From a virus (Duplodnaviria; Heunggongvirae; Uroviricota; Caudoviricetes): a stretch of 64,000 nucleotides of DNA. The stretch spans positions 1 through 64,000 of IMG/VR virus record IMGVR_UViG_3300027806_000037; one strand, written 5' to 3'. Position 1 is the first letter of the stretch. Every line of letters starts with the position of its first letter. Of this stretch, positions 471-62,778 are shown one piece after another. A program made the translations under genes and the position numbers. The notes under the pieces were generated by a model, which ran no database searches, was not told the DNA's origin, and worked only from the letters and a program-made list of their open reading frames with translations.

Positions 471-845
471 ATGGAATTTATTGAATATAATGGTAAGAGC
501 GAGGATTTTCCGGGATCTTGGGATCACGTTCTAGCTGATGATGTAAAAACGTATGTTCCGGTTGTGGAACGATTACATTGGGCATATGGATACCCAATCA
601 TAAGAAATATTTTTTATATGTTAGGCACAAATAAAAATCGTGATATATACTATGTTTATCCGGATTTTGGTAACAAATATTATATATACGCATCTGAGGA
701 TTTAAATAAGGCTAAGTTCTTTGTTGAAAATTTTATAGTAAAGGGGTTAAATAACGAATTACTAACATCAGAGACACGTATATTTGATTTACAAGAATAT
801 ACGCAAAAATTAAGTCAAATCATTAAAATTGTTGAAGAAAAATGA
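471..845 (+). CDS. hypothetical protein
   Basis: ATG at about 471 (MEFIEYNGK) inside track ORF 384..845; stop overlaps next start (ATGA). Confidence 0.45.
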   Translation: MEFIEYNGKSEDFPGSWDHVLADDVKTYVPVVERLHWAYGYPIIRNIFYMLGTNKNRDIYYVYPDFGNKYYIYASEDLNKAKFFVENFIVKGLNNELLTSETRIFDLQEYTQKLSQIIKIVEEK

Positions 846-1351
846 ATATAGTAAATAAAGCAAGGGAGTTTGCAATCAAAGCACACAATGCTGTGAATCA
901 AAAATATGATAATCAACCTTATGAGGTTCATCTTAAAATGGTCAGTGAATTTGCAAGTCAGTTCCAATATCTCCTTAAAGATGATGATTTGGAAATAGCG
1001 CAAGCATCCGCATGGTTACACGACACACTAGAGGATATTTACTTTATAAGTTACAACGACATCAAAAAGGAATTCGGTGAGCAAATTGCAGAAGCTGTCT
1101 ATGCATTAACGAATGAAAAAGGTAGGACGCGAAAAGACCGAGCGAATGCTAAATACTATCAGGGTATTCGCGATATTCCTGTTGCTAGATTCGTTAAGGT
1201 CTGCGATAGACTTGCAAATGCGAGTTATTCTATAAGTAATGATAGTTCAATGGTGAATGCGTATCGTAAAGAAAATGAGGAATTTAATCGTGAGTTATAT
1301 TGCGATGAATTAAAACCCATGTTTGATTATTTAAACCAAATATTAAAATAA
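842..1351 (+). CDS. HD-domain phosphohydrolase, RelA/SpoT-type (p)ppGpp hydrolase fold (small alarmone hydrolase-like)
   Basis: Motifs AIKAHNAVNQKYDNQPYEVHL ... AWLHDTLED ... FGEQIAEAVYALTNEK match the SpoT/Mesh1 HD hydrolase signature (A..AH..Q.R.SGEPYI.H; HD in LHDxxED; FG..VA.LV.GVT). Confidence 0.7.
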   Translation: MNIVNKAREFAIKAHNAVNQKYDNQPYEVHLKMVSEFASQFQYLLKDDDLEIAQASAWLHDTLEDIYFISYNDIKKEFGEQIAEAVYALTNEKGRTRKDRANAKYYQGIRDIPVARFVKVCDRLANASYSISNDSSMVNAYRKENEEFNRELYCDELKPMFDYLNQILK

Positions 1352-1359
1352 AATGTTTA

Positions 1360-1722
1360 ATGAAAGTAATAATAGCGGGTAGTAGAGACTTTAATGATTA
1401 TGAATTATTAAAGAAAACTTGCGATAAAATTTTAATAAATCAAAAGGATATCGAGATAGTGAGTGGAGGCGCTAAAGGTGCCGATGCTCTTGGTGAACGA
1501 TATGCAAATGAAAGGAGATATGGTCTTAAGATTTTTTTGGCGAATTGGGATGAATATAAAAAAAAAGCTGGTTATCTTCGAAATATTAAAATGTCTGAAT
1601 ATGCTGACGCTCTAATAGCATTTTGGGATGGCGAATCTAGAGGGACGAAACATATGATTGATATAGTAACTGAAAAGGGATTAAAAACTAGAATAATTAG
1701 ATATGGAATACAAAATAAATAA
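1360..1722 (+). CDS. SLOG-superfamily (DUF2493/YpsA-like) putative nucleotide-binding protein
   Basis: VIIAGSRDF ... VSGGAKGADALGERYA ... LIAFWDGESRGT pattern typical of the phage-associated DUF2493 Rossmann-like family. Confidence 0.55.
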   Translation: MKVIIAGSRDFNDYELLKKTCDKILINQKDIEIVSGGAKGADALGERYANERRYGLKIFLANWDEYKKKAGYLRNIKMSEYADALIAFWDGESRGTKHMIDIVTEKGLKTRIIRYGIQNK

Positions 1723-2242: not shown

Positions 2243-2612
2243 TACTATCTAAAAATATATTTGCAACCTCGTTATAAAATAAATTAGCGATTTCATCATC
2301 TTCCATATTCTTATCTTTGATTTCATCATAACCCAAAGCATACATTAAATGCTCAATATCATAATAAGAATACGGTAAACTAATCCAACTTGGTAAACCT
2401 TGCAAATACTCAATAAATGCTCGTTTCATACCACGTCTTTTGATTTCAAAATCATATTCATTCACGAATATTTCCAAACCGGTTTTTAATGGATTTTTTG
2501 TTGGTCTAATATCATACCCATCAAAATCTATATTATCCACAATAAAATCTTTTAAATTATTTTGTCTATCCGATTCCTTTAAAAGTTTTTTAATTTTTGT
2601 TCTTATATTCAT
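2235..2612 (-). CDS. hypothetical protein (one of few plausible minus-strand genes)
   Basis: 125-aa ORF, convergent with 1703..2242, fills a gap otherwise free of + ORFs. Confidence 0.4.
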   Translation of the reverse strand: MNIRTKIKKLLKESDRQNNLKDFIVDNIDFDGYDIRPTKNPLKTGLEIFVNEYDFEIKRRGMKRAFIEYLQGLPSWISLPYSYYDIEHLMYALGYDEIKDKNMEDDEIANLFYNEVANIFLDSII

Positions 2613-2668
2613 TTTATTTTTTATATATAAATACTTATGTTTATAAAAACATTCTTTCGCTTAAAAAT

Positions 2669-3739
2669 ATGCAAATAATAAATAACAAATTAAAATATAT
2701 ATTTATAATAATTTTTGGTTTTGTTTTCAACATTAAAACTTTCTCACAAACAGATTTGGTATTTTATGATTTTAATGTATGTAATAATAATCCTGATTAT
2801 ATTTTTCCATATTTTAATGCAACACCTGTGACAACAACTTTACCACTTGGTTCGGGATGTAGTAGCATTAATGATGGATGTGCAGCCGGATGCCCCGATT
2901 TGATTTGTACAAATAACAACACATCCTTTATAACAAAATCTTGGACTAGTCCAGCAATAAATCTCGCTCATTATTATGAGTTTACAATATCAACATATCC
3001 AAATGTTTCGTTTTATTTAAATCAATTAAGTTTTAGTTTCAGAAGATCATCCACTGGACCCACCAACCTTGCTGTATATATGAATGGTGTTTCTCAATCA
3101 ATATTTAATTCAACATCAACAAGTTGCGTTTCACTTGGTGCGGGAATTAATCAATTGGTGACTGGTTCAGCAAATTTTAAAATTTATTTTTGGGGTGGCT
3201 CGGTCGATGGGACAGTAAGAATTGATAATGTGAAACTCACACATTCGTTTACAACTTTACCAATTGAGTTAGTTTATTTTAATGTGAGGTCAATTGAAAA
3301 TAAAATTAATTTAGAGTGGTTGACATCATCAGAAGTGGATAATTCGCATTTTGAAATTGAAAAGTCATTTGATGCGTTTAATTTCTATAAAATAGCCAAT
3401 ATAATTTCAATTGGTTACTCACAACAAAATATATTGTATAATTATACAGATTTTAATGTAAATAATGATAAAATAATATATTATCGCTTAAAACAAGTTG
3501 ATTATGATGGTGATTATACATATTCACCAATAGTTTCAGTTAATAATAATTTTGATGCAATTTTAATACAAAATGGATTGGTTTCATTAACCAACCAACA
3601 TGAATACAAAATAGCTAATATTTGTGATATCTCTGGGAGATTTATTCATGATTTGAATAATGGATCAGTTCAGCTAAATGCTGGAATATATTTATTAAGA
3701 TTAAACGATAAAACCAAAAAAATTGTTTTAAACAATTAA
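2669..3739 (+). CDS. secreted protein with T9SS (Por) C-terminal sorting domain
   Basis: N-terminal signal peptide (IFIIIFGFVFNIKTFSQ); C-terminal about 70 aa (ILIQNGLVSL...ISGRFIHDL...LNAGIYLLRLNDKTKKIVLNN) matches the T9SS type A CTD pattern. Confidence 0.55.
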   Translation: MQIINNKLKYIFIIIFGFVFNIKTFSQTDLVFYDFNVCNNNPDYIFPYFNATPVTTTLPLGSGCSSINDGCAAGCPDLICTNNNTSFITKSWTSPAINLAHYYEFTISTYPNVSFYLNQLSFSFRRSSTGPTNLAVYMNGVSQSIFNSTSTSCVSLGAGINQLVTGSANFKIYFWGGSVDGTVRIDNVKLTHSFTTLPIELVYFNVRSIENKINLEWLTSSEVDNSHFEIEKSFDAFNFYKIANIISIGYSQQNILYNYTDFNVNNDKIIYYRLKQVDYDGDYTYSPIVSVNNNFDAILIQNGLVSLTNQHEYKIANICDISGRFIHDLNNGSVQLNAGIYLLRLNDKTKKIVLNN

Positions 3740-3787
3740 TTTGTTTTTCTAAACATTTTTATTTATATTTGCATATAAATACAAAAA

Positions 3788-4462
3788 ATGTTAATTACAA
3801 TAATATCTGATACCCACACAAAACATCATCACATTCCGAAAGAACATCTTCCGGGTGGAGACATGATTATTCATTGTGGTGATATTTCTTCGCGTGGTTA
3901 TAGAGAAGAGGTTAGATTGTTCCTTGAATGGTTTACCGATTTAGATTCCTATACACACAAAGTATTCATTGCTGGTAATCACGATTTCTTCTTTGAAGAT
4001 AACCCACTCCAATCAAAGGAATTGGTTCAAGAATATTCAAATATAATTTATCTTCAGGATAATATGGTTGAAATTGAGGGGGTCAAAATTTATGGCTCAC
4101 CTTGGCAACCAGAATTTTATAATTGGGCGTTTAATCTTCCAAGAAACGGTGAAAAACTTAAAGAAAAATGGAAAGCAATACCGGAGAATATTGATATATT
4201 AATTACACATGGTCCACCGTTTGGTTGTTTGGACAAAACAATTCAGGGACAATCCGTTGGATGCGAAATTTTGACCGAAGAAATTAAAAGAATTAATCCA
4301 ATAATTCATTGTTTTGGTCATATTCATTATTCTTATGGTTATATGCAAAGAGACAATATTAATTTTATTAATGCGTGTTCTCTTGGTGAAAATTATGTTT
4401 ATCAAAACAAACCTTTGAACATTGATTTGGATATGTCAAATAGAATGATTAGCTTTGTCTAA
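3788..4462 (+). CDS. calcineurin-like metallophosphoesterase
   Basis: DTH ... GDISSRG ... GNHD ... GHIH metal-binding motif order of the MPP superfamily. Confidence 0.75.
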   Translation: MLITIISDTHTKHHHIPKEHLPGGDMIIHCGDISSRGYREEVRLFLEWFTDLDSYTHKVFIAGNHDFFFEDNPLQSKELVQEYSNIIYLQDNMVEIEGVKIYGSPWQPEFYNWAFNLPRNGEKLKEKWKAIPENIDILITHGPPFGCLDKTIQGQSVGCEILTEEIKRINPIIHCFGHIHYSYGYMQRDNINFINACSLGENYVYQNKPLNIDLDMSNRMISFV

Positions 4463-4473
4463 ACAAAAAACAA

Positions 4474-4620
4474 ATGAAAAAATTAATTTTTGCACTTATT
4501 ATTGTTATTTTTGCATCTTCCTGTGCATCACAAAGATGTCATGGTGTTGGAAACACAACACATGCACTTAAAGCGAAAAAGCAGCAACAACAAAGAACGT
4601 TTTCACAATTTCCTTTCTAA
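4474..4620 (+). CDS. small putative lipoprotein (48 aa, not in track)
   Basis: MKKLIFALIIVIFASSC lipobox-like signal; Q-rich tail. Confidence 0.3.
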   Translation: MKKLIFALIIVIFASSCASQRCHGVGNTTHALKAKKQQQQRTFSQFPF

Positions 4621-5195
4621 TGTTTAAACATAGTTTTTCATATTATTTTAGAAATACTTGGGAATTTATCCGATGGGATATTCCAAGATTTTTTAAGAAC
4701 ATTTGGAGGTTCAGGAGAGAACTTAAATCCTTTGGTGGTTGGGACCGGTATTATACTATCTCAATGCTAAGAAGGTCTTTGATTACACAGAAAGAATCAA
4801 TGGAAAAGTTCAGCAATGAATATGAACCAACACTTAGATTGAAACTTTATTATATGAAGAGAGCAATTTATTTAACGGATTGCATTCTCGAAGATAAATT
4901 TCATGATATGGCGGAAGCTAGACTTGGTTATAAAACAGTTTTTAGAGATTTTAAATTTGAACCAATTGAAGGTTCTACCAGTAAAAGATTGGTTTTTGAT
5001 GAAGAAAGCGAAGAAGAAAGACAAGCGAACTGGAAAATTTTTGAGGAATCTTCAAAAATTGAGAAAGAAGTTTGGAATGAACTTTTTGATATTTTAAAAG
5101 GCGATATCTATAATGTTGATATGTATACCGAACATAAAGGTAAAGCATATGAAGATGTTCACAATGGTAAGGGTTTAATTAATTGGTGGTACTAA
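4620..5195 (+). CDS. hypothetical protein
   Basis: 191-aa ORF. Confidence 0.5.
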   Translation: MFKHSFSYYFRNTWEFIRWDIPRFFKNIWRFRRELKSFGGWDRYYTISMLRRSLITQKESMEKFSNEYEPTLRLKLYYMKRAIYLTDCILEDKFHDMAEARLGYKTVFRDFKFEPIEGSTSKRLVFDEESEEERQANWKIFEESSKIEKEVWNELFDILKGDIYNVDMYTEHKGKAYEDVHNGKGLINWWY

Positions 5196-5207
5196 AAAAA
5201 TAAAAAC

Positions 5208-5522
5208 ATGTCAGGAGGTTATTTTGATTATAAAAAATATCAACTTAATGATATCATTGATGATATTGAAAGAGTTTTAAATAGACAAGGAAAAGAAAGA
5301 CCAAAAGAAGAACGTTGGTGTAGTGATGAATATCTTGAAAAATATCCAGAAGAAAAATATTATCCAACCTATTCAAAAGAAATTCAAGAAAAATTGCAAG
5401 AAGCAATTAAATCATTAACAATTGCAAGAATTTATGTACAAAGAGTTGATTGGTTTTTATCGGGTGATGATGGCGATGAATCATTCTTGAGAGAATTGTC
5501 TGAAGAATTGGATAAGGTATAG
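5208..5522 (+). CDS. hypothetical acidic protein
   Basis: 104-aa ORF. Confidence 0.45.
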   Translation: MSGGYFDYKKYQLNDIIDDIERVLNRQGKERPKEERWCSDEYLEKYPEEKYYPTYSKEIQEKLQEAIKSLTIARIYVQRVDWFLSGDDGDESFLRELSEELDKV

Positions 5523-5545
5523 ATATTTATTGAAAAATAAAAATC

Positions 5546-5809
5546 ATGAGTACTGAAATGAGAAAACTCATAAATGAGTTTAATAACATTAACGAATCAA
5601 GTTTAAATAGAATATATAGTCATATTCAAAAATATGAATGCGCAATTATAACAGCGTTTAAAGGTAAGTTAACTAACTGTAGAACCGAAAATGATAATGA
5701 AAAAAGAATATATATTAGACAGAACAAGGATAGAAATAAACTTTTAAAATCAGCTTTATTATTTTTTGGATATCAAATTACAAAAGTAAAAGGTACTTAT
5801 GTTGAATAA
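5546..5809 (+). CDS. hypothetical protein
   Basis: 87-aa ORF. Confidence 0.4.
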   Translation: MSTEMRKLINEFNNINESSLNRIYSHIQKYECAIITAFKGKLTNCRTENDNEKRIYIRQNKDRNKLLKSALLFFGYQITKVKGTYVE

Positions 5810-5888
5810 ACCACAAACCCGCCACTTGCATATACACGCTGTTATAAGCAGGTGCGGTATTATAGCACAGAACTTGATTTGAAAGACG

Positions 5889-5937
5889 AAACCTTTTTCT
5901 TTTCTTTTTGTGTGGTGGGAAAATAAAATTTAAAATA
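5889..5937 (+). promoter_or_regulatory. conserved about 50-nt upstream element AACCTTTTTCTTTTCTTTTTGTGTGGTGGGAAAATAAAATTTAAAA (copy 1, upstream of IleRS-like gene)
   Basis: near-identical copy at about 10684..10748 upstream of another gene. Confidence 0.4.
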
Positions 5938-7911
5938 ATGAATAAAGTATTATTACCAAAAGAAGAAATTACACAGAAGTTAGATAGAGATAAACTTACT
6001 TTATTGAACGCTTCTATCAAAGATTATGTGAACAACTTGTATGAAAATTCAAATGATGAATACATTATACAAGATGGTGAACCATACGCCAATGGAGAAT
6101 TACATTTGGGACATTTTTTAAACAAAACCTTGAAAGATTTTGTTGTAAAATATTACTTAACAAAAGGTAAGAAAGTTAGGGTTTCATTTGGTTGGGACTG
6201 TCATGGTTTACCCATTGAAAATAAAGCAAAAGAAATGAGTGGTGATTTAATTCAAAATGCTAAATTAGTCGCAACCAAATATTGTGATATTCAAAATAAA
6301 ACTCTTGAACTTTTCGGGATTTATCCAACTGAAGGTAGGTTTAAAACTATGGATATTGATTTTATAGAAAGAGAATTATATATATACCACCAACTACTAA
6401 ATGCGGGTCTAATTCTTAAAAAGAATAAGCCTACTTGGTACTCACCAACATTAAAAACAGTATTGGCTAACTCAGAAATTGAATATAAAAAAATAGAAGA
6501 TGAATCTTTGTATTTTCTATTCAACTCTGATAGTTTTAAATTACTTGTTTGGACAACAACAGAATGGACTGTAAACGGAAATCAGGCAGTATGTTTAAGT
6601 AATAATATAAAATATGTTAAAACTGTTGACAATATTATTTGTAGTGAAAGTTTTGCTATTGAAAATAATTTAGATTATGATTTGTTTGATGTGAGTAATA
6701 TTAAGTCATATCATAACCACAATGGAGATTTATGTCCAATTATTTATGATGACTACGTTTCAGATGATAAAACAGGTATAGTACATCTTTGCGGTGGACA
6801 CGGTGATGAAGATTATCGAATTTTAATGGATAATAACATAACCCCCAAAAATGTGTGCGATAAAATCGGCTTATTAAAACACATAGAAGATTTTAAAATT
6901 GATGAAAAGTTTGTATATAAACGTGAAATTTACACACACGATTATCCAATTGATTGGCGTGAAGGGAATAAGGTGTATAAAGTATTAACGGAACAAACGT
7001 ATCTTGATTTTGATTTAAACAAAATAAAGACTTGTTTAAAAGAAATAAAGTTATCATCAAAAGACAGAAATCGTTTATCAACGACAATATTTTCACGCAA
7101 AGATTGGTGTATTTCAAGACAAAGAAAATGGGGTGTTAAAATACCTAATAGTAATGATATATTGGATGTTTGGTTTGATAGTGGTTCTACATTTATGATG
7201 TATGATAAACCTGCCGATATATACATTGAAGGTTCAGACCAACACAGAGGGTGGTTTCAAAGTTCGATTATATTAGCATCAATGATTGGTCGAGTACCAA
7301 CAAAAAGAATAATAACACACGGATTTATTGTTGATAACACATTAGAAAAACTATCAAAATCAAAAGGTAATGGCGGAAGTTTGGAAAAGCTGTATGAAAC
7401 ATATAACCCTGATGTATTAAGACTATGGGTTTTACTGTCAGATTTTAAAAACGATATTGTCTTTTCGGAAGATTCATTAAAAAACTCTGGTAAACAATAT
7501 TTTAAAATAAGAAACTTTCTCCGTTATTTATTTAATAATCTATATATATATGATTATGATGAAACAAAAGTTGATGAAAATATTTTTTTTAAAGTAAAAG
7601 AGTTGGAAAATAAATTTGATTTACTTGTCAATGAATTTGATTTGAATAAAGCAGTAAGGGGTTTTGTTGAATTTATAAACTATTATTCATCTTTGTTGAC
7701 GGAGGATATTAAAAATGAATTTTATGAATCTGACACAAATTCCAATATGAGAATTAAATATGAAACAGAGTTTTACTATGTTTTAAAACACTTAAATAAA
7801 CTACTTTTTTCGATTTTACCATTTCTTTCTATGGAAATAAAAAAAGCGTGGGAAGAAAAAAGAAAAGAAAAAGATTTACATGTAGGGACTATATTTGGAA
7901 ACGAGATGTAG
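5938..7911 (+). CDS. ileS: isoleucyl-tRNA synthetase-like class I aaRS, shortened (about 657 aa)
   Basis: PYANGELHLGHFLNKTLKDFVVKYY (HIGH region), GWDCHGLPIE, WTTTEWT, DWCISRQRKWGVKIP and KLSKSKGN (KMSKS) are IleRS signatures. Protein is about 250-400 aa shorter than canonical IleRS: reduced CP1, C-terminal Zn domain missing. Confidence 0.8.
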   Translation: MNKVLLPKEEITQKLDRDKLTLLNASIKDYVNNLYENSNDEYIIQDGEPYANGELHLGHFLNKTLKDFVVKYYLTKGKKVRVSFGWDCHGLPIENKAKEMSGDLIQNAKLVATKYCDIQNKTLELFGIYPTEGRFKTMDIDFIERELYIYHQLLNAGLILKKNKPTWYSPTLKTVLANSEIEYKKIEDESLYFLFNSDSFKLLVWTTTEWTVNGNQAVCLSNNIKYVKTVDNIICSESFAIENNLDYDLFDVSNIKSYHNHNGDLCPIIYDDYVSDDKTGIVHLCGGHGDEDYRILMDNNITPKNVCDKIGLLKHIEDFKIDEKFVYKREIYTHDYPIDWREGNKVYKVLTEQTYLDFDLNKIKTCLKEIKLSSKDRNRLSTTIFSRKDWCISRQRKWGVKIPNSNDILDVWFDSGSTFMMYDKPADIYIEGSDQHRGWFQSSIILASMIGRVPTKRIITHGFIVDNTLEKLSKSKGNGGSLEKLYETYNPDVLRLWVLLSDFKNDIVFSEDSLKNSGKQYFKIRNFLRYLFNNLYIYDYDETKVDENIFFKVKELENKFDLLVNEFDLNKAVRGFVEFINYYSSLLTEDIKNEFYESDTNSNMRIKYETEFYYVLKHLNKLLFSILPFLSMEIKKAWEEKRKEKDLHVGTIFGNEM

Positions 7912-7916
7912 CACTT

Positions 7917-8040
7917 GCTTATAACGGTTGCAAATATAAAACGTTTTAAACTAAACTTAAATTGAAAAACAGTATATAAATATAAACCAACAATAAATTT
8001 GGAACGCTGAAATAAATGTTTTATATTTGTTGTTATAAAC
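7917..8040. repeat. palindromic element (PE family: ATAACGGTTG-arm ... arm-TTGTTATAA)
   Basis: cttataacggttgcaaatataaaacgtttt ... aaatgttttatatttgttgttataa inverted arms. Confidence 0.5.
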
Positions 8041-8058
8041 ACGTTAAATTATTTTATT

Positions 8059-8337
8059 ATGAAAACATATAATGTAAAGTATGATGTTGGACAAGAAGTA
8101 TATATACTTTTATCCAAAAAAATATTTAAAAGTAAAATTGAAAAGATTAGAATTGTTCATGGGGTACCTTATATCAAAGGCGAAACAATGGAACAAATGG
8201 ATGGAATTGAAATTGATTACTTGGTTGTAGTTAATGAACAATTCTATCCTTCAGGTGGACATTTATCTAGTTATGATTGGTATAAACAGGATGATATTTT
8301 TTTGGATAAAGATGAACTGTTGCGGAAAATAATTTAA
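8059..8337 (+). CDS. hypothetical protein (PE-bracketed cassette ORF)
   Basis: 92-aa ORF between PE elements. Confidence 0.45.
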   Translation: MKTYNVKYDVGQEVYILLSKKIFKSKIEKIRIVHGVPYIKGETMEQMDGIEIDYLVVVNEQFYPSGGHLSSYDWYKQDDIFLDKDELLRKII

Positions 8338-8342
8338 TTGTT

Positions 8343-8397
8343 TATAACGTCTGATGATAAACAATCGTTTTAATGTGTTTTATTTGCTGTTATAAGT
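8343..8397. repeat. PE-family palindromic element (GATGATAAACAA...TTGTTTATC hairpin variant)
   Basis: ataacgtctgatgataaacaatcgttttaatgtgttttatttgctgttataag; same hairpin type recurs at about 12979..13040. Confidence 0.45.
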
Positions 8398-8419
8398 ATG
8401 TAATTTACAATTTATACCT

Positions 8420-8665
8420 ATGAAAAAAACGAAAAGAAAAATACATATTGGAAATGACCTATGGTTTTATTGGGTTGGTTCTGGTAGATGGGGTGAGGTA
8501 ACTCATGTAACGATATGTTCACCAGATGAACAATATTATAAAATAGATGCAAGTGATGTTGCAAGTAGTGAAATGTATGTTGGTGCGGAAGGGTCATTTC
8601 CAACACAAATATTACCGTCAAAAGTTAAAGAATATATTGAAAATAAAATAATAAATAAATTTTAA
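8420..8665 (+). CDS. hypothetical protein (cassette ORF)
   Basis: 81-aa ORF. Confidence 0.45.
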   Translation: MKKTKRKIHIGNDLWFYWVGSGRWGEVTHVTICSPDEQYYKIDASDVASSEMYVGAEGSFPTQILPSKVKEYIENKIINKF

Positions 8666-8673
8666 ATTATTAC

Positions 8674-8772
8674 TTATAACGGTTGGGTGTATGAGAAGGT
8701 TTGCTTAGATGAACTTTCAAATTAACCACTGAACTTTATAGCAAACTTTCTTATACACCTTGTTATGTGTAG
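8674..8772. repeat. PE-family palindromic element
   Basis: ttataacggttgggtgtatgagaaggtttgc ... gcaaactttcttatacaccttgttatgtgtagg; about 27-nt inverted arms, about 45-nt loop. Confidence 0.6.
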
Positions 8773-8836
8773 GTGTGGTTAATTAAGGTAGAATGTTAAA
8801 TAGTAGAAATGAACAAAAATTTTAAAAGAAAAATAT

Positions 8837-9247
8837 ATGAATTATAAACAAAAAATTACAACTATCAATTATTTTGAAAAGGTGGTTAAAATTTCTCTAA
8901 CAAGAGAAGAGTGGAATTCATCTGGAACTTGGGTAGAGTCAATGATGAAAAAAGGTTGTGAAAGACTGAGTAAGGATTGGTTTGAAGATTTACATCACTT
9001 AGTTATGCGACCAATAAGTGACGAAATAAACTTTTCTGGTAAAAACTATACTTATGATGTGGATATAACATTTGATATACCAAGAGAATTACTGAGAATG
9101 TTTGTATATTCAATCGGTCAAATTGCTTATGATTTTGATGTTAAAGGTATAACTTCGGTTACTGCTCAAAATATAGTGGGAAAAATAAACAAACAATTAA
9201 AAGAACAACTACCAAATGATGATAAATGGTTTCATTATGGATTTTGA
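8837..9247 (+). CDS. hypothetical protein (cassette ORF)
   Basis: 136-aa ORF. Flanks (gtggttaattaaggtagaatgtt...aaaaattttaaaagaaaaat upstream; tttcttttaaaattttcaaccgaaatgttgattagaacgatg...cttacacataacgt downstream) are repeated around ORF 13110..13334. Confidence 0.5.
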   Translation: MNYKQKITTINYFEKVVKISLTREEWNSSGTWVESMMKKGCERLSKDWFEDLHHLVMRPISDEINFSGKNYTYDVDITFDIPRELLRMFVYSIGQIAYDFDVKGITSVTAQNIVGKINKQLKEQLPNDDKWFHYGF

Positions 9248-9312
9248 TTTTTCTTTTAAAATTTTCAACCGAAATGTTGATTAGAACGATGAACGGAACG
9301 CTTACACATAAC
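9245..9312. repeat. about 70-bp direct repeat, copy 1 (TTTCTTTTAAAATTTT...GTTGATTAGAACGATG..GGAAC.CTTACACATAACGT)
   Basis: second copy at about 13325..13392. Confidence 0.55.
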
Positions 9313-9399
9313 GTATATCGGCTAAACGCAGTATTTAAAAACTTTTGCGAGGGAAATAATTAATCAATTAAATAATAATAATTAAAAACAAAAAGTAAA

Positions 9400-9723
9400 A
9401 TGGAAATCAAAACAAAATTTGACGTAAACAATTTGGTGAAAAGAAAATTCGACACCAATTCAAAGAACCAGATGAGTGCTTTGGAAGTAATGGAAGTGAT
9501 TGCACAAACTTGCTATGCAGGAACGCAGGTATTTTATTTGTGCAAACATGTAATTGCTCAAAAGGAATTTGTAGAAAAGTATTCTGAAAAAGGAGAATTT
9601 ACTTGGGTGATTGCTCACAGTATTTCACAAGAAGAAAATCAGGCAGGATGGAGAAAATACCGTGAAGATGAATTGATAGAAGCACCAAAAGAAGTGATTG
9701 ACATTATACTTGGTAATTCTTAA
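9400..9723 (+). CDS. hypothetical protein (cassette ORF)
   Basis: 107-aa ORF. Confidence 0.45.
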   Translation: MEIKTKFDVNNLVKRKFDTNSKNQMSALEVMEVIAQTCYAGTQVFYLCKHVIAQKEFVEKYSEKGEFTWVIAHSISQEENQAGWRKYREDELIEAPKEVIDIILGNS

Positions 9724-14392: not shown

Positions 14393-14486
14393 CTAGTATA
14401 TATAAGTAAGTATAATCTAACCACTTAAAAATAAAGGACTTGAATAATAAAATTATTAAGATTTGTGAAGAAAAGTTTATATATTT
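14393..14486 (+). repeat. 94-bp perfect direct repeat, copy A (covers promoter region and first 15 codons of the tyrosine recombinase)
   Basis: ctagtatatataagtaagtataatctaaccacttaaaaataaaggacttgaataataaaattattaagatttgtgaagaaaagtttatatattt, identical at 43982..44075. Confidence 0.8.
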
Positions 14487-15240
14487 AAACTATTCACCAA
14501 GAACAAAAGATAATTATCTTTCACATATAAAAAATTTCTTAAATCACATTGGTAGTAAACAAGTAATACATTGTAATGCTCAAGATTTTCAATCCTATTT
14601 AGATAATTATAAATTCACTTCAACAGCACAACAAAACCAAATCATTAACGCAATAAGATTTCTCTACAAATTTGGTCTTAATAAAAAATATGATAAAATA
14701 TCGTTTAAAAGACCTAAATCTGAGAAGAAACTACCAAAAGTAATTGATTCAAATTCAATCATTGATAAATTAAATAAGATTGATAATCTCAAACACAAAG
14801 CAATTCTCACCTTAACTTTTTCAGTTGGTCTACGAGTCTCAGAAATAATTAATCTTAAAATAGAGGATATTGATTCCAAGCGAATGTTAATCCACATTAA
14901 GAACGCAAAAGGAAGAAAAGATAGAGTTGTTCCATTATCTCAAAATGTATTAAGACTATTAAGAACTTATTATAAAAATTATATCCCAAAGGAATATCTC
15001 TTCAATGGACAAAACAGTACTAAATATTCAATAGGTAGTTGTCAGAAAATATACAAAAAATATATTGAATCTGATGGACATATACACACACTTAGACACA
15101 GTTTTGCAACATCCTTATTAGAAAATGGAACAGATTTAAGAATTATTCAAAAAATTCTTGGTCATTCAAATGTTAAAACCACAGAAATATACACACACGT
15201 TTCAAATCAAATTTTGAACAAAATTAATTTGCCAGTTTGA
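14440..15240 (+). CDS. tyrosine site-specific recombinase/integrase (XerC/D-like), apparent TTG start
   Basis: Catalytic set R (LRVSEI), K (HIKNAKGRKDR), HxxR (HTLRHSFAT), H...Y (LGHSNVKTTEIYTHV). No in-frame ATG near the N-terminus; the frame opens after a stop at about 14413. Confidence 0.8.
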   Translation: MNNKIIKICEEKFIYLNYSPRTKDNYLSHIKNFLNHIGSKQVIHCNAQDFQSYLDNYKFTSTAQQNQIINAIRFLYKFGLNKKYDKISFKRPKSEKKLPKVIDSNSIIDKLNKIDNLKHKAILTLTFSVGLRVSEIINLKIEDIDSKRMLIHIKNAKGRKDRVVPLSQNVLRLLRTYYKNYIPKEYLFNGQNSTKYSIGSCQKIYKKYIESDGHIHTLRHSFATSLLENGTDLRIIQKILGHSNVKTTEIYTHVSNQILNKINLPV

Positions 15241-16080: not shown

Positions 16081-16398
16081 ATGGCAAAATTCATTCTTAC
16101 CGAAAAACAAATGGCGGAAGTTCTTCAGCATATTGAGAAAACAAAAAAACAAGTTAATGAAGATAAGGACGGTTCTTATATGGCAAAACAACAATTATTT
16201 ACAATTGCAACATTAGCATATAAAATGTGGGAGCAATTGGGTGATGATGAACAACTTGATGATTGGATGGAATCAAAGATAGCACAAGCTGAACAATCCG
16301 TTGTTGCTGTTGTTAAAGCATATATGTATGATGAGGTTGAAGATAAAATGAAGGGAATGGATAAGTTGGACCATAATGATTTAATTATTGGGAATTGA
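16081..16398 (+). CDS. hypothetical protein
   Basis: ATG (MAKFILTEKQ) inside track ORF 16018..16398; the upstream part of the track ORF is the terminator. Confidence 0.5.
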   Translation: MAKFILTEKQMAEVLQHIEKTKKQVNEDKDGSYMAKQQLFTIATLAYKMWEQLGDDEQLDDWMESKIAQAEQSVVAVVKAYMYDEVEDKMKGMDKLDHNDLIIGN

Positions 16399-16438
16399 CC
16401 TTTTGACTTTTTCTTTTTATCTTTATGGTGTTAAACCA

Positions 16439-16654
16439 ATGGAAAAAAGAAAACTAAAAATAGAATTAAACGAATATTGTTATAATTGCGCTGATGGCTG
16501 TTGTACTCATTATGGTACAATAACCAAAGTTAATGGTCAAGAATTGGAATTGCATAATGATGATACAGCAACAATACTTAAACAAGTATTGAAACATTTG
16601 GGTTATGAAGTCGAAATAACAACTAATGTAGCAGATGATTATGGGAATGTTTGA
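16439..16654 (+). CDS. hypothetical Cys-containing protein
   Basis: ATG (MEKRKLKIEL); CYNCADGCCTH. Confidence 0.45.
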   Translation: MEKRKLKIELNEYCYNCADGCCTHYGTITKVNGQELELHNDDTATILKQVLKHLGYEVEITTNVADDYGNV

Positions 16655-16943
16655 TGATTTATATATTGATAAAAAACATCTACCTGACGAGTTAAAAGAT
16701 TATGAATTTGGTTGGAAAACCAAAAGTCATCATAGACTTCTTAATTTATTGAAAATCGATGAAAATGGTAATCTATTATTGGTTGATGTTGATGAATATG
16801 GTAATCATGGAGAAACTGAAAAACTAAATTATACTGGTGAGATTAGATTTTATCAAAATATTAACTCAATATGGTACGAATTTGTTGCTTTTTTTGTGAA
16901 AGGTGAAATGTTAAAAATAATTAAATTAGAAGAAAATGAGTAA
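16635..16943 (+). CDS. hypothetical protein
   Basis: 102-aa ORF. Confidence 0.45.
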   Translation: MIMGMFDDLYIDKKHLPDELKDYEFGWKTKSHHRLLNLLKIDENGNLLLVDVDEYGNHGETEKLNYTGEIRFYQNINSIWYEFVAFFVKGEMLKIIKLEENE

Positions 16944-17145
16944 AGAACTAAAACCAGTTGAATATAAAATTACAACAAAAGCTGATGTTGTGTTATATGA
17001 AGGATTTGATATTAAATTAGCGGTTAGAGCATATTCAGATCTTAGTGCGGATAAACGGTTTGAAAGACGTGGCGATGATGAATGGAAACTAAAATTCTAC
17101 AAACCCGAAAATAATGAGTTCTTTAAACCAAAAGTTTTTAGATAA
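16936..17145 (+). CDS. hypothetical protein
   Basis: 69-aa ORF. Confidence 0.4.
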   Translation: MSKELKPVEYKITTKADVVLYEGFDIKLAVRAYSDLSADKRFERRGDDEWKLKFYKPENNEFFKPKVFR

Positions 17146-17201: not shown

Positions 17202-18182
17202 ATGAAAGACGCAACGATTGAAATTATTTCTGAAGTCAAAGCTCATCCTGATGCAGATAGACTTGATCTTGTTAAGATTCTTGGGTTTCAATGCGTTACA
17301 CAAAAAGGACTTTATAAGGGTGGTGAGAAAATTGTTTATATTCGACCTGATGCGGTTCTTCCTATTGAACCTTGGACTGAAGAGTATCGAAAATATTCAC
17401 CAAAACGAATCAAAGCTGTAAAACTTCGTGGCGAATTTAGTGAAGGTATTATTGTTAGGTTTGAACAACTTCCAGTTGATTTATCAAATCTTCAAGTTGG
17501 CTCTGATGTGAGTGAACAAATTGGTGTTGTTCATTATGAAGCACCACAACCACAAGATCTTCAAGCAAAAGGTTATCTTCCGGTTGGAATTGGTCCCACT
17601 GATGAAATTCGATTTGAGAATATCATTGATGAACTTCCATTCGGTTCAATTGTTGATGTTACATCTAAAGTTGATGGACAAAGTTGTAGTTTCTATTATA
17701 ACATTGAAACTGATGAATTTGGTGTTCTTGGAAGAAACTTGGAAATGAAGTTGGATGCGGTAAATAACTATACCGCACATGTTGCTCGTTACAACATTAA
17801 AAATAAGCTTATTGACTATTGCAAAAAACATAATGTTTCTTTGTGCATTCGTGGTGAGTCGTTTGGTCAAGGGATTCAAAGTTCTGGAAACAATCCACAT
17901 TCTCAAAAACCAAAAGGGTGGGTAATGTTTTCTGTATATAACATTAAAGAACGTAAATATCATAGAAAGAACGATAGATTCTATTTTAGAAATGTTGCGC
18001 AAGAATTGGAATTACCATTCGTTGATATCATTGAATTGGATGTCGAATTAACTAATGAGTTGATTCAAAAATATTCGGTTGGTATTGATAAAATTGAAGG
18101 TAAACCTTTTGAGGGTGTTGTAATTAATCATGAAAATGGTTCTTTTAAAGTTATTAACAAATCTTATGATTCTAAAAAATGA
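17202..18182 (+). CDS. fusion of tRNA-binding OB domain (Myf/EMAP/CsaA type) and RNA ligase nucleotidyltransferase domain
   Basis: N-terminus EVKAHPDADRLDLVKI ... KGGEKIVYIRPDAVLP ... LRGEFSEGII matches the tRNA-binding domain of MetRS-C/PheT-N/CsaA. C-terminus has ligase motif I KVDGQS, motif III-like IRGESFG, motif IV EGVVI, motif V FKVINK. Confidence 0.6.
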   Translation: MKDATIEIISEVKAHPDADRLDLVKILGFQCVTQKGLYKGGEKIVYIRPDAVLPIEPWTEEYRKYSPKRIKAVKLRGEFSEGIIVRFEQLPVDLSNLQVGSDVSEQIGVVHYEAPQPQDLQAKGYLPVGIGPTDEIRFENIIDELPFGSIVDVTSKVDGQSCSFYYNIETDEFGVLGRNLEMKLDAVNNYTAHVARYNIKNKLIDYCKKHNVSLCIRGESFGQGIQSSGNNPHSQKPKGWVMFSVYNIKERKYHRKNDRFYFRNVAQELELPFVDIIELDVELTNELIQKYSVGIDKIEGKPFEGVVINHENGSFKVINKSYDSKK

Positions 18183-33972: not shown

Positions 33973-34422
33973 ATGAAAGCAACGCTTGAAAACGGAATTG
34001 TCATCGAACTCACGCAAGAACAACTTGCTCAGATTGATAAACAACGAAATAAAGATGTTAAAACCAAAGAACAACGATTCTTGGAATTGATTTCAGGAAT
34101 TGATGTTCATCAACCGAAGGTTGATTTCCAAAAATATCCAAATCTCTTGTTTTGGTTTGATAAAGATGGAAATTATGTCTGCGAATACGATTGGAAAAAT
34201 AACCATTTTTGGTTCTCATATTCAAATGTTTGGTCAGTTTTTGAATCGGAATTCGCCCTTAATTATCAGGAAATCAGGATGTTCTTGAATGGTATGGTGG
34301 AAGAACATTTCAAATTGGAGGGTGTTACAACAAAGGCAACTCACGCCGCCCCTGCTGTTGCGGTGGAAGAACATTTCAAATTGGAGGGTGTTACAACCAA
34401 AAGTGACCCGTTGTATAATTAA
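33973..34422 (+). CDS. hypothetical protein, paralog A (contains internal 45-bp tandem duplication EEHFKLEGVTTK)
   Basis: about 95% identical to 38456..38839 over 125 aa. Confidence 0.55.
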   Translation: MKATLENGIVIELTQEQLAQIDKQRNKDVKTKEQRFLELISGIDVHQPKVDFQKYPNLLFWFDKDGNYVCEYDWKNNHFWFSYSNVWSVFESEFALNYQEIRMFLNGMVEEHFKLEGVTTKATHAAPAVAVEEHFKLEGVTTKSDPLYN

Positions 34423-61466: not shown

Positions 61467-61656
61467 TAAATTTAAACCAAAATCTTTCGTGTAAGAAGTA
61501 AATTAAAGGTTTAATTATTAATTCAATAAAACTCATTGTTGCGCCGATTTTAAAATCACCGGTGGCTAAATATCCAATAGTAAAGGTAAAAATGGAACCA
61601 ATTAATCTATAGGAAATTGTTTTAAGGATATGTCTGAGTAATGATTTATCTTTCAT
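61456..61656 (-). CDS. small membrane protein
   Basis: 66 aa, two hydrophobic helices. Confidence 0.4.
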   Translation of the reverse strand: MKDKSLLRHILKTISYRLIGSIFTFTIGYLATGDFKIGATMSFIELIIKPLIYFLHERFWFKFIRL

Positions 61657-62048
61657 AATTTACCTTCATTTTTCATTTCTTCTCTAATTTTTGTTGCTGA
61701 AATATCATGTATTTCTTGAGGTGGAATATGCTCAATTATATCATATCCAACACCTCTACCATAATTTATTGATTCAATATCTGGTATCACTATAATTTCT
61801 AATCTACCGTCCGAAATTAAATCCGATAGTTCAGATTTTAAATTATTAACAACCCATTCAGTACTAAAAGGATTTTTTTCATCAACAGCAACATCACGAA
61901 CACATAATAAAACATTTTTACCATCATTTAATTGTTGGTCGATTAACCATCGATGTCCTTTGTGCCAAGGTTGCCATCTTCCAACAAACATGGAATATTT
62001 TTTATCATTTGATGATGATGTATTACCTTTTGCGATATAGTTTTTCAT
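61653..62048 (-). CDS. nucleotidyltransferase of the NadM/NadR NMN adenylyltransferase type
   Basis: FVGRWQPWHKGHRWLI matches the G-R-F-Q-P-x-H-x-G-H signature. Confidence 0.55.
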   Translation of the reverse strand: MKNYIAKGNTSSSNDKKYSMFVGRWQPWHKGHRWLIDQQLNDGKNVLLCVRDVAVDEKNPFSTEWVVNNLKSELSDLISDGRLEIIVIPDIESINYGRGVGYDIIEHIPPQEIHDISATKIREEMKNEGKL

Positions 62049-62476
62049 CTATTTAATTTATTTAAAAGTTCATGAAAAGTTTCTTCTATTGACTTATTTG
62101 TTGTATCGATATCTATGTAATTTTCGGTCGGTGATTCATAATCAATTACATGATATTGTTCTCTACCTCTTACCTCATTACAATGAACGTAAATCTCAAT
62201 AACATTGTTTTTAATTTCATTCCTAATTTCTTTATATGGTGCAACTAATGATAAAATAACATCATGGTTTAGATTATCTAAATATATTGCTATATTTTGT
62301 GCTGTTCTTATATTTTGAATTCTGCCGGTTTTTTCGTAATTTTGATTATTAAATAATTTTCTAATATCATCACCATCAATATGGAAAACAGAATTAAATT
62401 TGGATAAATAATCTTTTAATTTAATTGCTAATGTGGTTTTACCATGTCCGGGTTGTCCTGTAAAATAGTATATCAT
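62045..62476 (-). CDS. P-loop kinase (APS-kinase/ribosylnicotinamide-kinase-like fold)
   Basis: MIYYFTGQPGHGKTTLA Walker A; internal ATG start of track ORF 62045..62515. Confidence 0.5.
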   Translation of the reverse strand: MIYYFTGQPGHGKTTLAIKLKDYLSKFNSVFHIDGDDIRKLFNNQNYEKTGRIQNIRTAQNIAIYLDNLNHDVILSLVAPYKEIRNEIKNNVIEIYVHCNEVRGREQYHVIDYESPTENYIDIDTTNKSIEETFHELLNKLNR

Positions 62477-62496
62477 TTTTATAAAAAAAATACAAC

Positions 62497-62778
62497 ATGA
62501 AAAACATAAAGTCAATCTTTAAAAATAACACACATTTAATGGATGAGCCTGAAGTTCAAGAACTTATTGATTATTGTGATGAATTAGAATCACAATTGAT
62601 AGATGTTAAGCAGAGTGAGCAATTCTCAAAGGAAGATATCTTTAAAGAAATGATTCGTGAAATTTTGGTTGGTTGTGATGAAATTTTAGAAGGGCAAGAT
62701 ATCGATTATAAAAAAATGATTGAAAACCTTAAATTCTATATAAAAACAAATTGTGAGGAGTATAATATAAGATTATGA
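62497..62778 (+). CDS. hypothetical acidic protein
   Basis: 93-aa ORF. Confidence 0.45.
   Translation: MKNIKSIFKNNTHLMDEPEVQELIDYCDELESQLIDVKQSEQFSKEDIFKEMIREILVGCDEILEGQDIDYKKMIENLKFYIKTNCEEYNIRL

Follow-up and report, generated by a model that had tools for sequence, protein, structure and literature searches.

An Rnl5-family RNA ligase homologue of a divergent branch in a large AT-rich freshwater phage

The ligase gene and its family

The stretch of DNA analysed here, which we call the window, comprises the first 64,000 nucleotides of the IMG/VR virus record IMGVR_UViG_3300027806_000037, and one of its genes encodes a protein that is homologous over its full length to the ATP-dependent RNA ligases of the Rnl5 family and keeps their two-domain fold and catalytic residues. 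The gene lies on the plus strand at 17202..18182, stop codon included, and is a complete open reading frame (ORF) from ATG to stop, which opens at the first start codon past the upstream stop and encodes 326 residues. Its assignment is based on Pfam, NCBIfam, PDB, PHROG and an AlphaFold2 model. The antisense and out-of-frame ORFs overlapping the same positions lack support.

The domain searches and the predicted structure agree on the family. The Pfam scan found PF21189 (PHA02142 OB-fold) at residues 4-85 with E 3e-12 and PF09414 (RNA_ligase) at residues 153-314 with E 1e-14, and PHROG 968, "RNA ligase", matches the protein over its full length (E 5e-42). The sole real matches in the PDB sequence search are the entries of the Naegleria gruberi RNA ligase NgrRnl (5COT and others), which cover residues 2-322 with E 4.7e-28. 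The AlphaFold2 model, for which the input alignment consisted of 36 members of the protein's own clade with 58-82% identity to the query, has a mean predicted local distance difference test score (pLDDT) of 90.5. When this model was compared with the PDB using Foldseek, the 13 best matches were all NgrRnl, aligned over both domains with TM scores of 0.81-0.85 and a root-mean-square deviation (rmsd) of about 3 A. The matches after NgrRnl, i.e. T4 Rnl1 (TM 0.42), Rnl3 and T4 Rnl2, extend over the nucleotidyltransferase (NTase) core only, with TM scores of about 0.4-0.47.

A first-pass annotation, made from the letters of the window and its ORFs, had read the product as an OB domain fused to an RNA-ligase NTase domain. 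The pair of Pfam domains and the NgrRnl match across both of them confirm this reading, and the C-terminal half falls inside the nucleotidyltransferase superfamily according to AlphaFold2 and Foldseek. The same annotation had presented the fusion as an economical variant of phage counter-defence. It is not a new variant, because Rnl5 is defined by this very architecture, with the OB module at the N-terminus and the NTase domain at the C-terminus; the architecture was described in 2007, together with a phage homologue aligned to the Deinococcus enzyme DraRnl (PMC1807946), and the family name dates from 2015 (PMC4408790).

Nucleotidyltransferase domain and active-site residues

The C-terminal NTase (adenylyltransferase) domain spans about residues 131-326 (17592..18179, plus strand), as indicated by PF09414, by the alignment with NgrRnl and DraRnl and by the Foldseek matches to the NTase cores of the three ligases Rnl1, Rnl2 and Rnl3. 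No appendage follows it at the C-terminus: 22 residues come after E304 of motif IV, and the norm for Rnl5 is about 20-30 residues.

We mapped the active-site residues through a HMMER alignment to the NgrRnl chain, in which the chain numbering is the native numbering plus one, and through a MAFFT alignment with DraRnl and two phage homologues, the DraRnl sequence being taken from the Deinococcus plasmid MP1. Conservation was counted in the alignment of the 36 clade sequences mentioned above. All the elements listed here are on the plus strand. The string TDEIR at residues 133-137 (17598..17612) contains T133 and R137, which correspond to T145 and R149 of NgrRnl and are found in 36/36 and 31/36 clade members, respectively. 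Motif I, KVDGQS at residues 156-161 (17667..17684), contains the predicted AMP-accepting lysine K156, aligned with K170 of NgrRnl and K165 of DraRnl, as well as D158 (NgrRnl D172) and G159 (DraRnl G168), and these three residues are invariant in the 36 clade members. The motif has Asp (KVDG) as in NgrRnl, whereas DraRnl has His (KLHG). Motif Ia, defined for DraRnl in PMC1807946, is the pair G177-R178 (17730..17735), which matches S185-K186 of DraRnl; R178 corresponds to R190 of NgrRnl and is invariant in the clade.

Motif III is IRGESFG at residues 216-222 (17847..17867), where E219 corresponds to E227 of NgrRnl and R217, G218, E219 and S220 are all invariant, and the motif IIIa aromatic residue is F243 (17928..17930), corresponding to F248 of NgrRnl and also invariant. 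Motif IV, EGVVI at residues 304-308 (18111..18125), has E304 in the place of NgrRnl E312 and DraRnl E305, and motif V, FKVINK at residues 315-320 (18144..18161), has K316 in the place of K326 of both enzymes; E304, G305, F315 and K316 are invariant. The first-pass assignments of motifs I, III, IV and V thus agree with the structure-based NgrRnl alignment in each of the four key residues (K156, E219, E304 and K316), and the strings that it had quoted are all present, including HPDADRL (residues 15-21) and LRGEFSEGI (residues 75-83) in the N-terminal part.

In NgrRnl, T145 touches the ribose 3'-OH, R149 touches the ATP gamma-phosphate, D172 ligates the catalytic metal, E227 touches the ribose 2'-OH and the metal, F248 stacks on the adenine, and K326 touches the alpha and gamma phosphates of ATP (PMC7261155). 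The nine mapped ATP- or metal-contacting residues of the NgrRnl NTase domain are all kept in the window protein, and eight of the nine are invariant in the 36 clade members, R137 being the exception.

N-terminal OB module

The N-terminal OB module, the signature domain of Rnl5, occupies about residues 1-115 (17202..17546, plus strand). It is supported by PF21189, by beta strands at residues 4-85 of the AlphaFold2 model, by Foldseek, and by a weak match of NCBIfam pheT_bact, the PheRS beta B2 region, at residues 8-107 (E 1.3e-3). D50 of the module corresponds to D53 of NgrRnl, and K25, Q30 and R69 correspond to K26, Q31 and R79 of DraRnl. D50, R69 and H111 are invariant in the clade, and K25 is found in 19 of its 36 members.

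The module had been described at first as a tRNA-binding fold, which stands at the level of the fold and fails at the level of the sequence family. Over the N domain only, Foldseek matched the model to PheRS beta 6oz5_D (1e-5), the CsaA-like tRNA-binding protein 3bu2 (6.5e-4, 24% identity), 9a77_B, and the MetRS C-terminal structure 5h34 (6e-3), and in the model the module shares its OB fold topology with the PheRS-beta B2 and CsaA-type tRNA-binding domains. Pfam tRNA_bind (PF01588) does not match the protein at E<=1. The likeness of the module to tRNA-binding domains was published in 2004-2007 and is noted in PMC1807946, and the literature searched holds no report of tRNA binding by any Rnl5 OB module.

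In DraRnl and NgrRnl, the two members that have been characterised, the only function demonstrated for the OB module is in the catalysis of step 1, i.e. the formation of ligase-AMP. Deletion of the N-terminal module kills the ligase adenylylation and the overall nick sealing but spares the sealing of pre-adenylylated nicks, and K26, Q31 and R79 in the N domain of DraRnl matter for adenylylation (PMC1807946). In the crystal structures of NgrRnl, the OB residues R4, D53 and K121 are positioned on the ATP gamma-phosphate and the metal complex (PMC7261155). The specificity for an RNA 3'-OH maps to the NTase domain (PMC4408790).

Comparison with known ligases and distribution

Among the characterised ligases, NgrRnl (PDB 5COT, 5COU, 6VT0-6VTG) has the same order of OB module and NTase domain and no C-terminal appendage either. 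It superposes on the AlphaFold2 model with a TM score of 0.84 and rmsd 2.9 A, and its D53 and nine NTase residues are matched. The window protein differs from it in having His111 for K121, no residue aligned with R4 and a shorter loop between OB strands, and in belonging to a phage rather than an amoeba. DraRnl (DRB0094, of the TIGR02306 seed) also has this architecture, and its K26, Q31 and R79 as well as K165, G168, E305 and K326 are matched. The covalent nucleotidyltransferase core and the three-step chemistry are shared with T4 Rnl1 and Rnl2, and the nick sealing expected of the window ligase resembles that of Rnl2. In the two T4 enzymes the N-terminal OB module is absent and distinct helical domains are present at the C-terminus, and the window ligase is the reverse (PMC1807946, PMC7261155).

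The protein is widespread in freshwater metagenomes. It occurs in identical form on at least 23 metagenomic contigs from freshwater samples of JGI and ENA, the longest being 256 kb, and JGI labels it "RNA ligase (TIGR02306 family)". Its own clade comprises over 120 clusters at >=56% identity, all of the same architecture, on contigs of uncultured freshwater phages of up to 386 kb. The exhaustive HMMER scan gave 6765 cluster representatives at E<=1e-3, of which 3322 have E<=1e-10. A homologue is found in 312 GenBank phage records (256 at >=80% coverage), with identity below 35% in all of them, and among the 30 such records listed most are labelled "RNA ligase". They include Aeromonas phage 44RR.8t, the Pseudomonas Pakpunavirus PAK_P1 (gp38c) and Sinorhizobium phage phiM12 (gp279), whose homologues (PHROG 968, PF21189) are of the same family and length class and carry this label. 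Homologues are also present on 35 plasmids, Deinococcus MP1 included. A megablast of the window against the GenBank phages found no near-identical DNA; the carrier is a large AT-rich freshwater phage.

The OB-plus-ligase design is textbook Rnl5, which hundreds of sequenced phages encode and automatic annotation names correctly, and it has little weight as a discovery. The residual value of the locus is in the question of the in vivo job of Rnl5 ligases. Genes for tRNAs and translation abound in the genomes of the clade, and in some relatives the ligase gene has a Pnkp and a further RNA ligase beside it, so these phages are a reasonable place to test RNA repair during infection.

Neighbourhoods in related phages

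We searched the window neighbours of the ligase, together with the metallophosphoesterase, kinase, HD, IleRS-like and TilS-like proteins of the window, against 39 related loci using tblastn. None of the ligase neighbours is conserved beyond near-identical contigs, and loose synteny with the window was seen in one locus only (L039).

Three relatives with 64-67% identity (L005, L037 and L038) encode a divergently transcribed pair of Pnkp and HNH-RNA ligase genes 2.3 kb upstream of Rnl5, at 6788..8695, 3867..6642 and 4786..6703 of the respective loci. The Pnkp has an AAA_33 kinase and a HAD_PNKP phosphatase domain; it is closest to the Capnocytophaga Pnkp1 4xrp (E 1e-51), and T4 Pnk matches with E 3e-36. 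The second ligase consists of HNH and RNA_ligase domains without a PDB sequence match, an architecture that a survey of jumbo phages reports for Rnl2-family ligases of phages (PMC7824862). Pnkp, the HNH ligase and Rnl5 may form a three-enzyme RNA-repair cluster in these relatives. Hidden Markov models (HMMs) of the Pnkp and the HNH ligase found neither protein in any other related locus, except that L024 has an incomplete Pnkp at its edge. The two genes of the pair in L037 are separated by an inserted homing-endonuclease-like gene (NUMOD3/TnsA-like).

Of about 35 related loci, 13 have tRNA genes at a distance of up to 10 kb from Rnl5. In L013 (58% identity), an array of 23 tRNAs (2396..9446) ends 555 nt upstream of Rnl5 and a 24th tRNA is located 2.6 kb downstream. 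These loci are phylogenetically non-independent and the counts are without control genes, and therefore the proximity of Pnkp and tRNA genes gives mild circumstantial support for an RNA-side role only. Hence the context in the relatives mildly favours a role in RNA repair, and it is not evidence that the OB module reads tRNA. Separately, the 363-kb relative L017 encodes on its minus strand (16344..17086), 5-6 kb from Rnl5, two tRNAs that may hint at a reassigned stop codon: one has the anticodon CTA (called "Pyl" by ARAGORN, as for an amber suppressor) and the other has an odd anticodon loop.

Predicted activity, mechanism and biological role

With its active site intact, the product very probably works as an ATP-dependent ligase, and our confidence is high that its family and chemistry are those of an Rnl5-type nick-sealing enzyme. 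In step 1, K156 would attack the alpha-phosphate of ATP and form ligase-AMP. The metal would be held via D158, E219 and E304, K316 and R137 would act on the ATP phosphates, and the OB module would close over the gamma-phosphate and a second metal through D50 and H111. The AMP would be handed to a 5'-phosphate in step 2, and in step 3 the 3'-OH of an RNA strand would attack, sealing a 3'-OH/5'-PO4 nick in a duplex. This mechanism, the preference for nicked duplexes with an RNA 3'-OH and the dependence on Mn or Mg are expected by analogy with the two characterised enzymes.

As for the role of such an activity, the sealing of broken RNA in RNA repair or counter-defence and the sealing of ribonucleotide-ended nicks in DNA appear about evenly balanced to us. 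The RNA-repair role is plausible, and it receives some support from the Pnkp and HNH-ligase pair in three relatives and from the frequent proximity of tRNA arrays.

Several observations weigh against the reading of the protein as an active Rnl5-family ligase or against a role in RNA repair. Its identity is low, about 27-30% to NgrRnl and 26% to DraRnl. The NCBIfam model TIGR02306 (RNA_lig_DRB0094) matches with E 1.6e-36 and 125.9 bits, which falls short of the curated equivalog cutoff of NCBI (151.15 bits), and which therefore places the protein, a new member of a known design, on a divergent branch. The position of NgrRnl K121 is taken by His111, which is invariant in the clade, and R4 of NgrRnl has no aligned counterpart, K2 being the adjoining residue. 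These two departures need not argue against activity, because in the MAFFT alignment the K121 position is occupied by Phe in DraRnl and the contacts of R4, D53 and K121 in NgrRnl are individually redundant (PMC7261155). Neither Pnkp nor a second RNA ligase was found in the window, which covers part of the phage genome, by tblastn or by the HMMs built from the three relatives, and Pnkp was also unseen in the Pfam, NCBIfam and PHROG scans of 57 other window ORFs and in the precomputed Pfam matches for 7.2-25.6 kb. Likewise, no 2H, HAD-PNKP, KptA, macro, RlaP, RtcB or CCA-adding enzyme was recognised by PHROG in 9 neighbours, by Pfam in 37 other ORFs or by NCBIfam in eight ORFs. The literature searched yielded no study of the activity or function of a phage Rnl5, and the only Rnl5 genetics, that of DraRnl, points to the sealing of ribonucleotide-ended nicks in DNA repair and not to RNA repair, since deletion of DraRnl slows the reassembly of the genome after irradiation and the ligase activity is required (PMC5397189).

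The ligase could serve on the DNA side, in line with what has been proposed for DraRnl, and seal nicks in the phage DNA that carry 3' ribonucleotides, e.g. the remnants of primers or the ribo-patches that gap filling leaves behind. We take this to be a real possibility, although one that we would not call probable. Besides the irradiation phenotype, it agrees with the ability of DraRnl and NgrRnl to ligate the 3'-OH of RNA to DNA that has a 5'-phosphate (PMC1807946, PMC4408790), with the location of the gene near the DNA primase/helicase region in PAK_P1-type phages, and with the fact that an RNA-healing enzyme is not seen nearby in the window or in most relatives. However, Pfam and PHROG recognised no replication or repair gene adjoining the ligase in the window, one sub-lineage pairs the gene with Pnkp and a second RNA ligase, and the gene is often close to tRNA arrays.

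A more specific proposal, that of the first-pass annotation, is that the OB module has the task of recognising tRNA and the protein is a self-contained repair ligase for tRNAs cut in the anticodon loop by host nucleases, with a metallophosphoesterase encoded at 3788 as the healing partner. We consider it unlikely. The OB fold group shared with the PheRS-beta B2, CsaA and Trbp111-type domains is in keeping with it, as are the IleRS-like gene, the TilS-N gene and two tRNAs in the window, the relatives near tRNA arrays (24 tRNAs in L013), and the adjacent Pnkp in three of them. It is also true that the literature searched holds no test of an Rnl5 enzyme on tRNA substrates. However, the OB module of DraRnl and NgrRnl serves adenylylation and not the sealing of pre-adenylylated ends, with the RNA-3'OH specificity residing in the NTase domain, as described above. 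NgrRnl is feeble on single-stranded RNA and seals duplex nicks with an RNA 3'-OH strand, and breaks in stem-loops are ascribed to Rnl1 and Rnl4 in contrast to the nick sealers (PMC4408790). The tRNA specificity of T4 Rnl1 comes from its C domain, according to work cited in PMC4408790; compared with the T4-type repair by Pnkp and Rnl1, the window ligase lacks such a C-terminal tRNA-specificity domain. In the relatives that encode Pnkp, the second ligase beside it is a possible sealer of tRNA.

The supposed healing partner fares no better. The metallophosphoesterase (3788..4462, plus strand) is MPPED2-like (PDB 3rl4, E 1e-44) and ends 12.7 kb, or about 25 ORFs, upstream of the ligase, and no homologue of it was found by tblastn within 10 kb of the ligase in about 35 related loci. 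A metallophosphoesterase is encoded 2.1 kb upstream of the phiM12 Rnl5, but it has no sequence kinship to that of the window. The tRNA-centred genes that the annotation had noticed around the ligase are real, i.e. the IleRS-like gene, the TilS N-domain gene and the two tRNAs, but their distance from the ligase is 9-18 kb, and they resemble a set for decoding rather than one for repair. Altogether, the claimed novelty, the tRNA recognition by the OB module and the anticodon-loop repair run against what is known of the two characterised members, and these claims, like the partnership with the metallophosphoesterase, have no support. The closeness of the window's metallophosphoesterase to the mammalian MPPED2 suggests a phosphodiesterase of the small-molecule or cyclic-nucleotide type, and not of the Pnkp or lambda-phosphatase type.

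A related idea is that the OB module of this clade of huge freshwater phages has kept or regained the RNA binding of its tRNA-binding ancestors, so that the enzyme is a dedicated tRNA sealer which acts, for instance, on stem breaks and base-paired halves and which forms, beside Pnkp and the HNH-Rnl2-type ligase, part of a counter-defence with several ligases against host tRNA nucleases. This also seems improbable to us; if true, it would give the first physiological RNA substrate for Rnl5 enzymes. Least probable is that the protein is a degenerate, non-catalytic relic whose ligase-like fold is kept for binding only, an idea that could draw on the low TIGR02306 score and the change of Lys to His at the K121 position and that we rejected on the residue conservation in the 36 clade members, since all the examined ATP and metal residues of the NTase domain are present and DraRnl, too, deviates at that position.

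Other genes in the window

The window has a GC content of 27-39% with nearly all genes on the plus strand, and the neighbours of the ligase are small ORFs without a Pfam or PHROG function. Near the left end, an HD-domain protein (842..1351, plus strand), weakly similar to SpoT/RelA hydrolases, is directly adjoined by a YspA/cpYpsA-type SLOG-domain protein (1360..1722, plus strand). In L005, L037 and phage phiM12, too, YpsA/DprA-like genes are located close to Rnl5. A tyrosine recombinase/integrase (14440..15240, plus strand; Phage_integrase E 2e-37) stands among small early-type ORFs of a genome that is apparently over 250 kb in size. Downstream of the ligase, the window encodes a Band_7 protein (21880), a DUF932 protein (29239), a tRNA-Arg(TCT) (31870) and a PD-(D/E)XK nuclease (32009).

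Three elements look like a kit of the phage for decoding AUA, i.e. tRNA-Ile2, lysidine synthase and IleRS, in a genome of 30% GC. A protein with the TilS N-terminal PP-loop domain is encoded at 35091..35693 (plus strand; TIGR02432 126 bits, above the cutoff), and a tRNA with the anticodon CAT, called Met by ARAGORN, starts 27 nt after it (35720..35794, plus strand). The gene 27 kb upstream of them (5908..7911, plus strand) encodes an IleRS-like class I synthetase, short at 667 residues, which scores 385 bits with TIGR00392, under the cutoff of 621. The relative L039 keeps the TilS-like gene with 60% identity.

Close to the right end, a weak cytidylyltransferase-like protein (61653..62048, minus strand) overlaps by 4 nt with an APS-kinase-like P-loop kinase (62045..62515, minus strand; Pfam APS_kinase E 3e-15, below the NCBIfam cutoffs), and pairs of genes on the minus strand, such as this one, are few in the window. 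The small ORFs at 33973..34422 and 38456..38839, both on the plus strand, are paralogous, as the same L039 proteins match both of them with about 30-34% identity, and indicate that the lineage of this phage has a small gene family with several copies.

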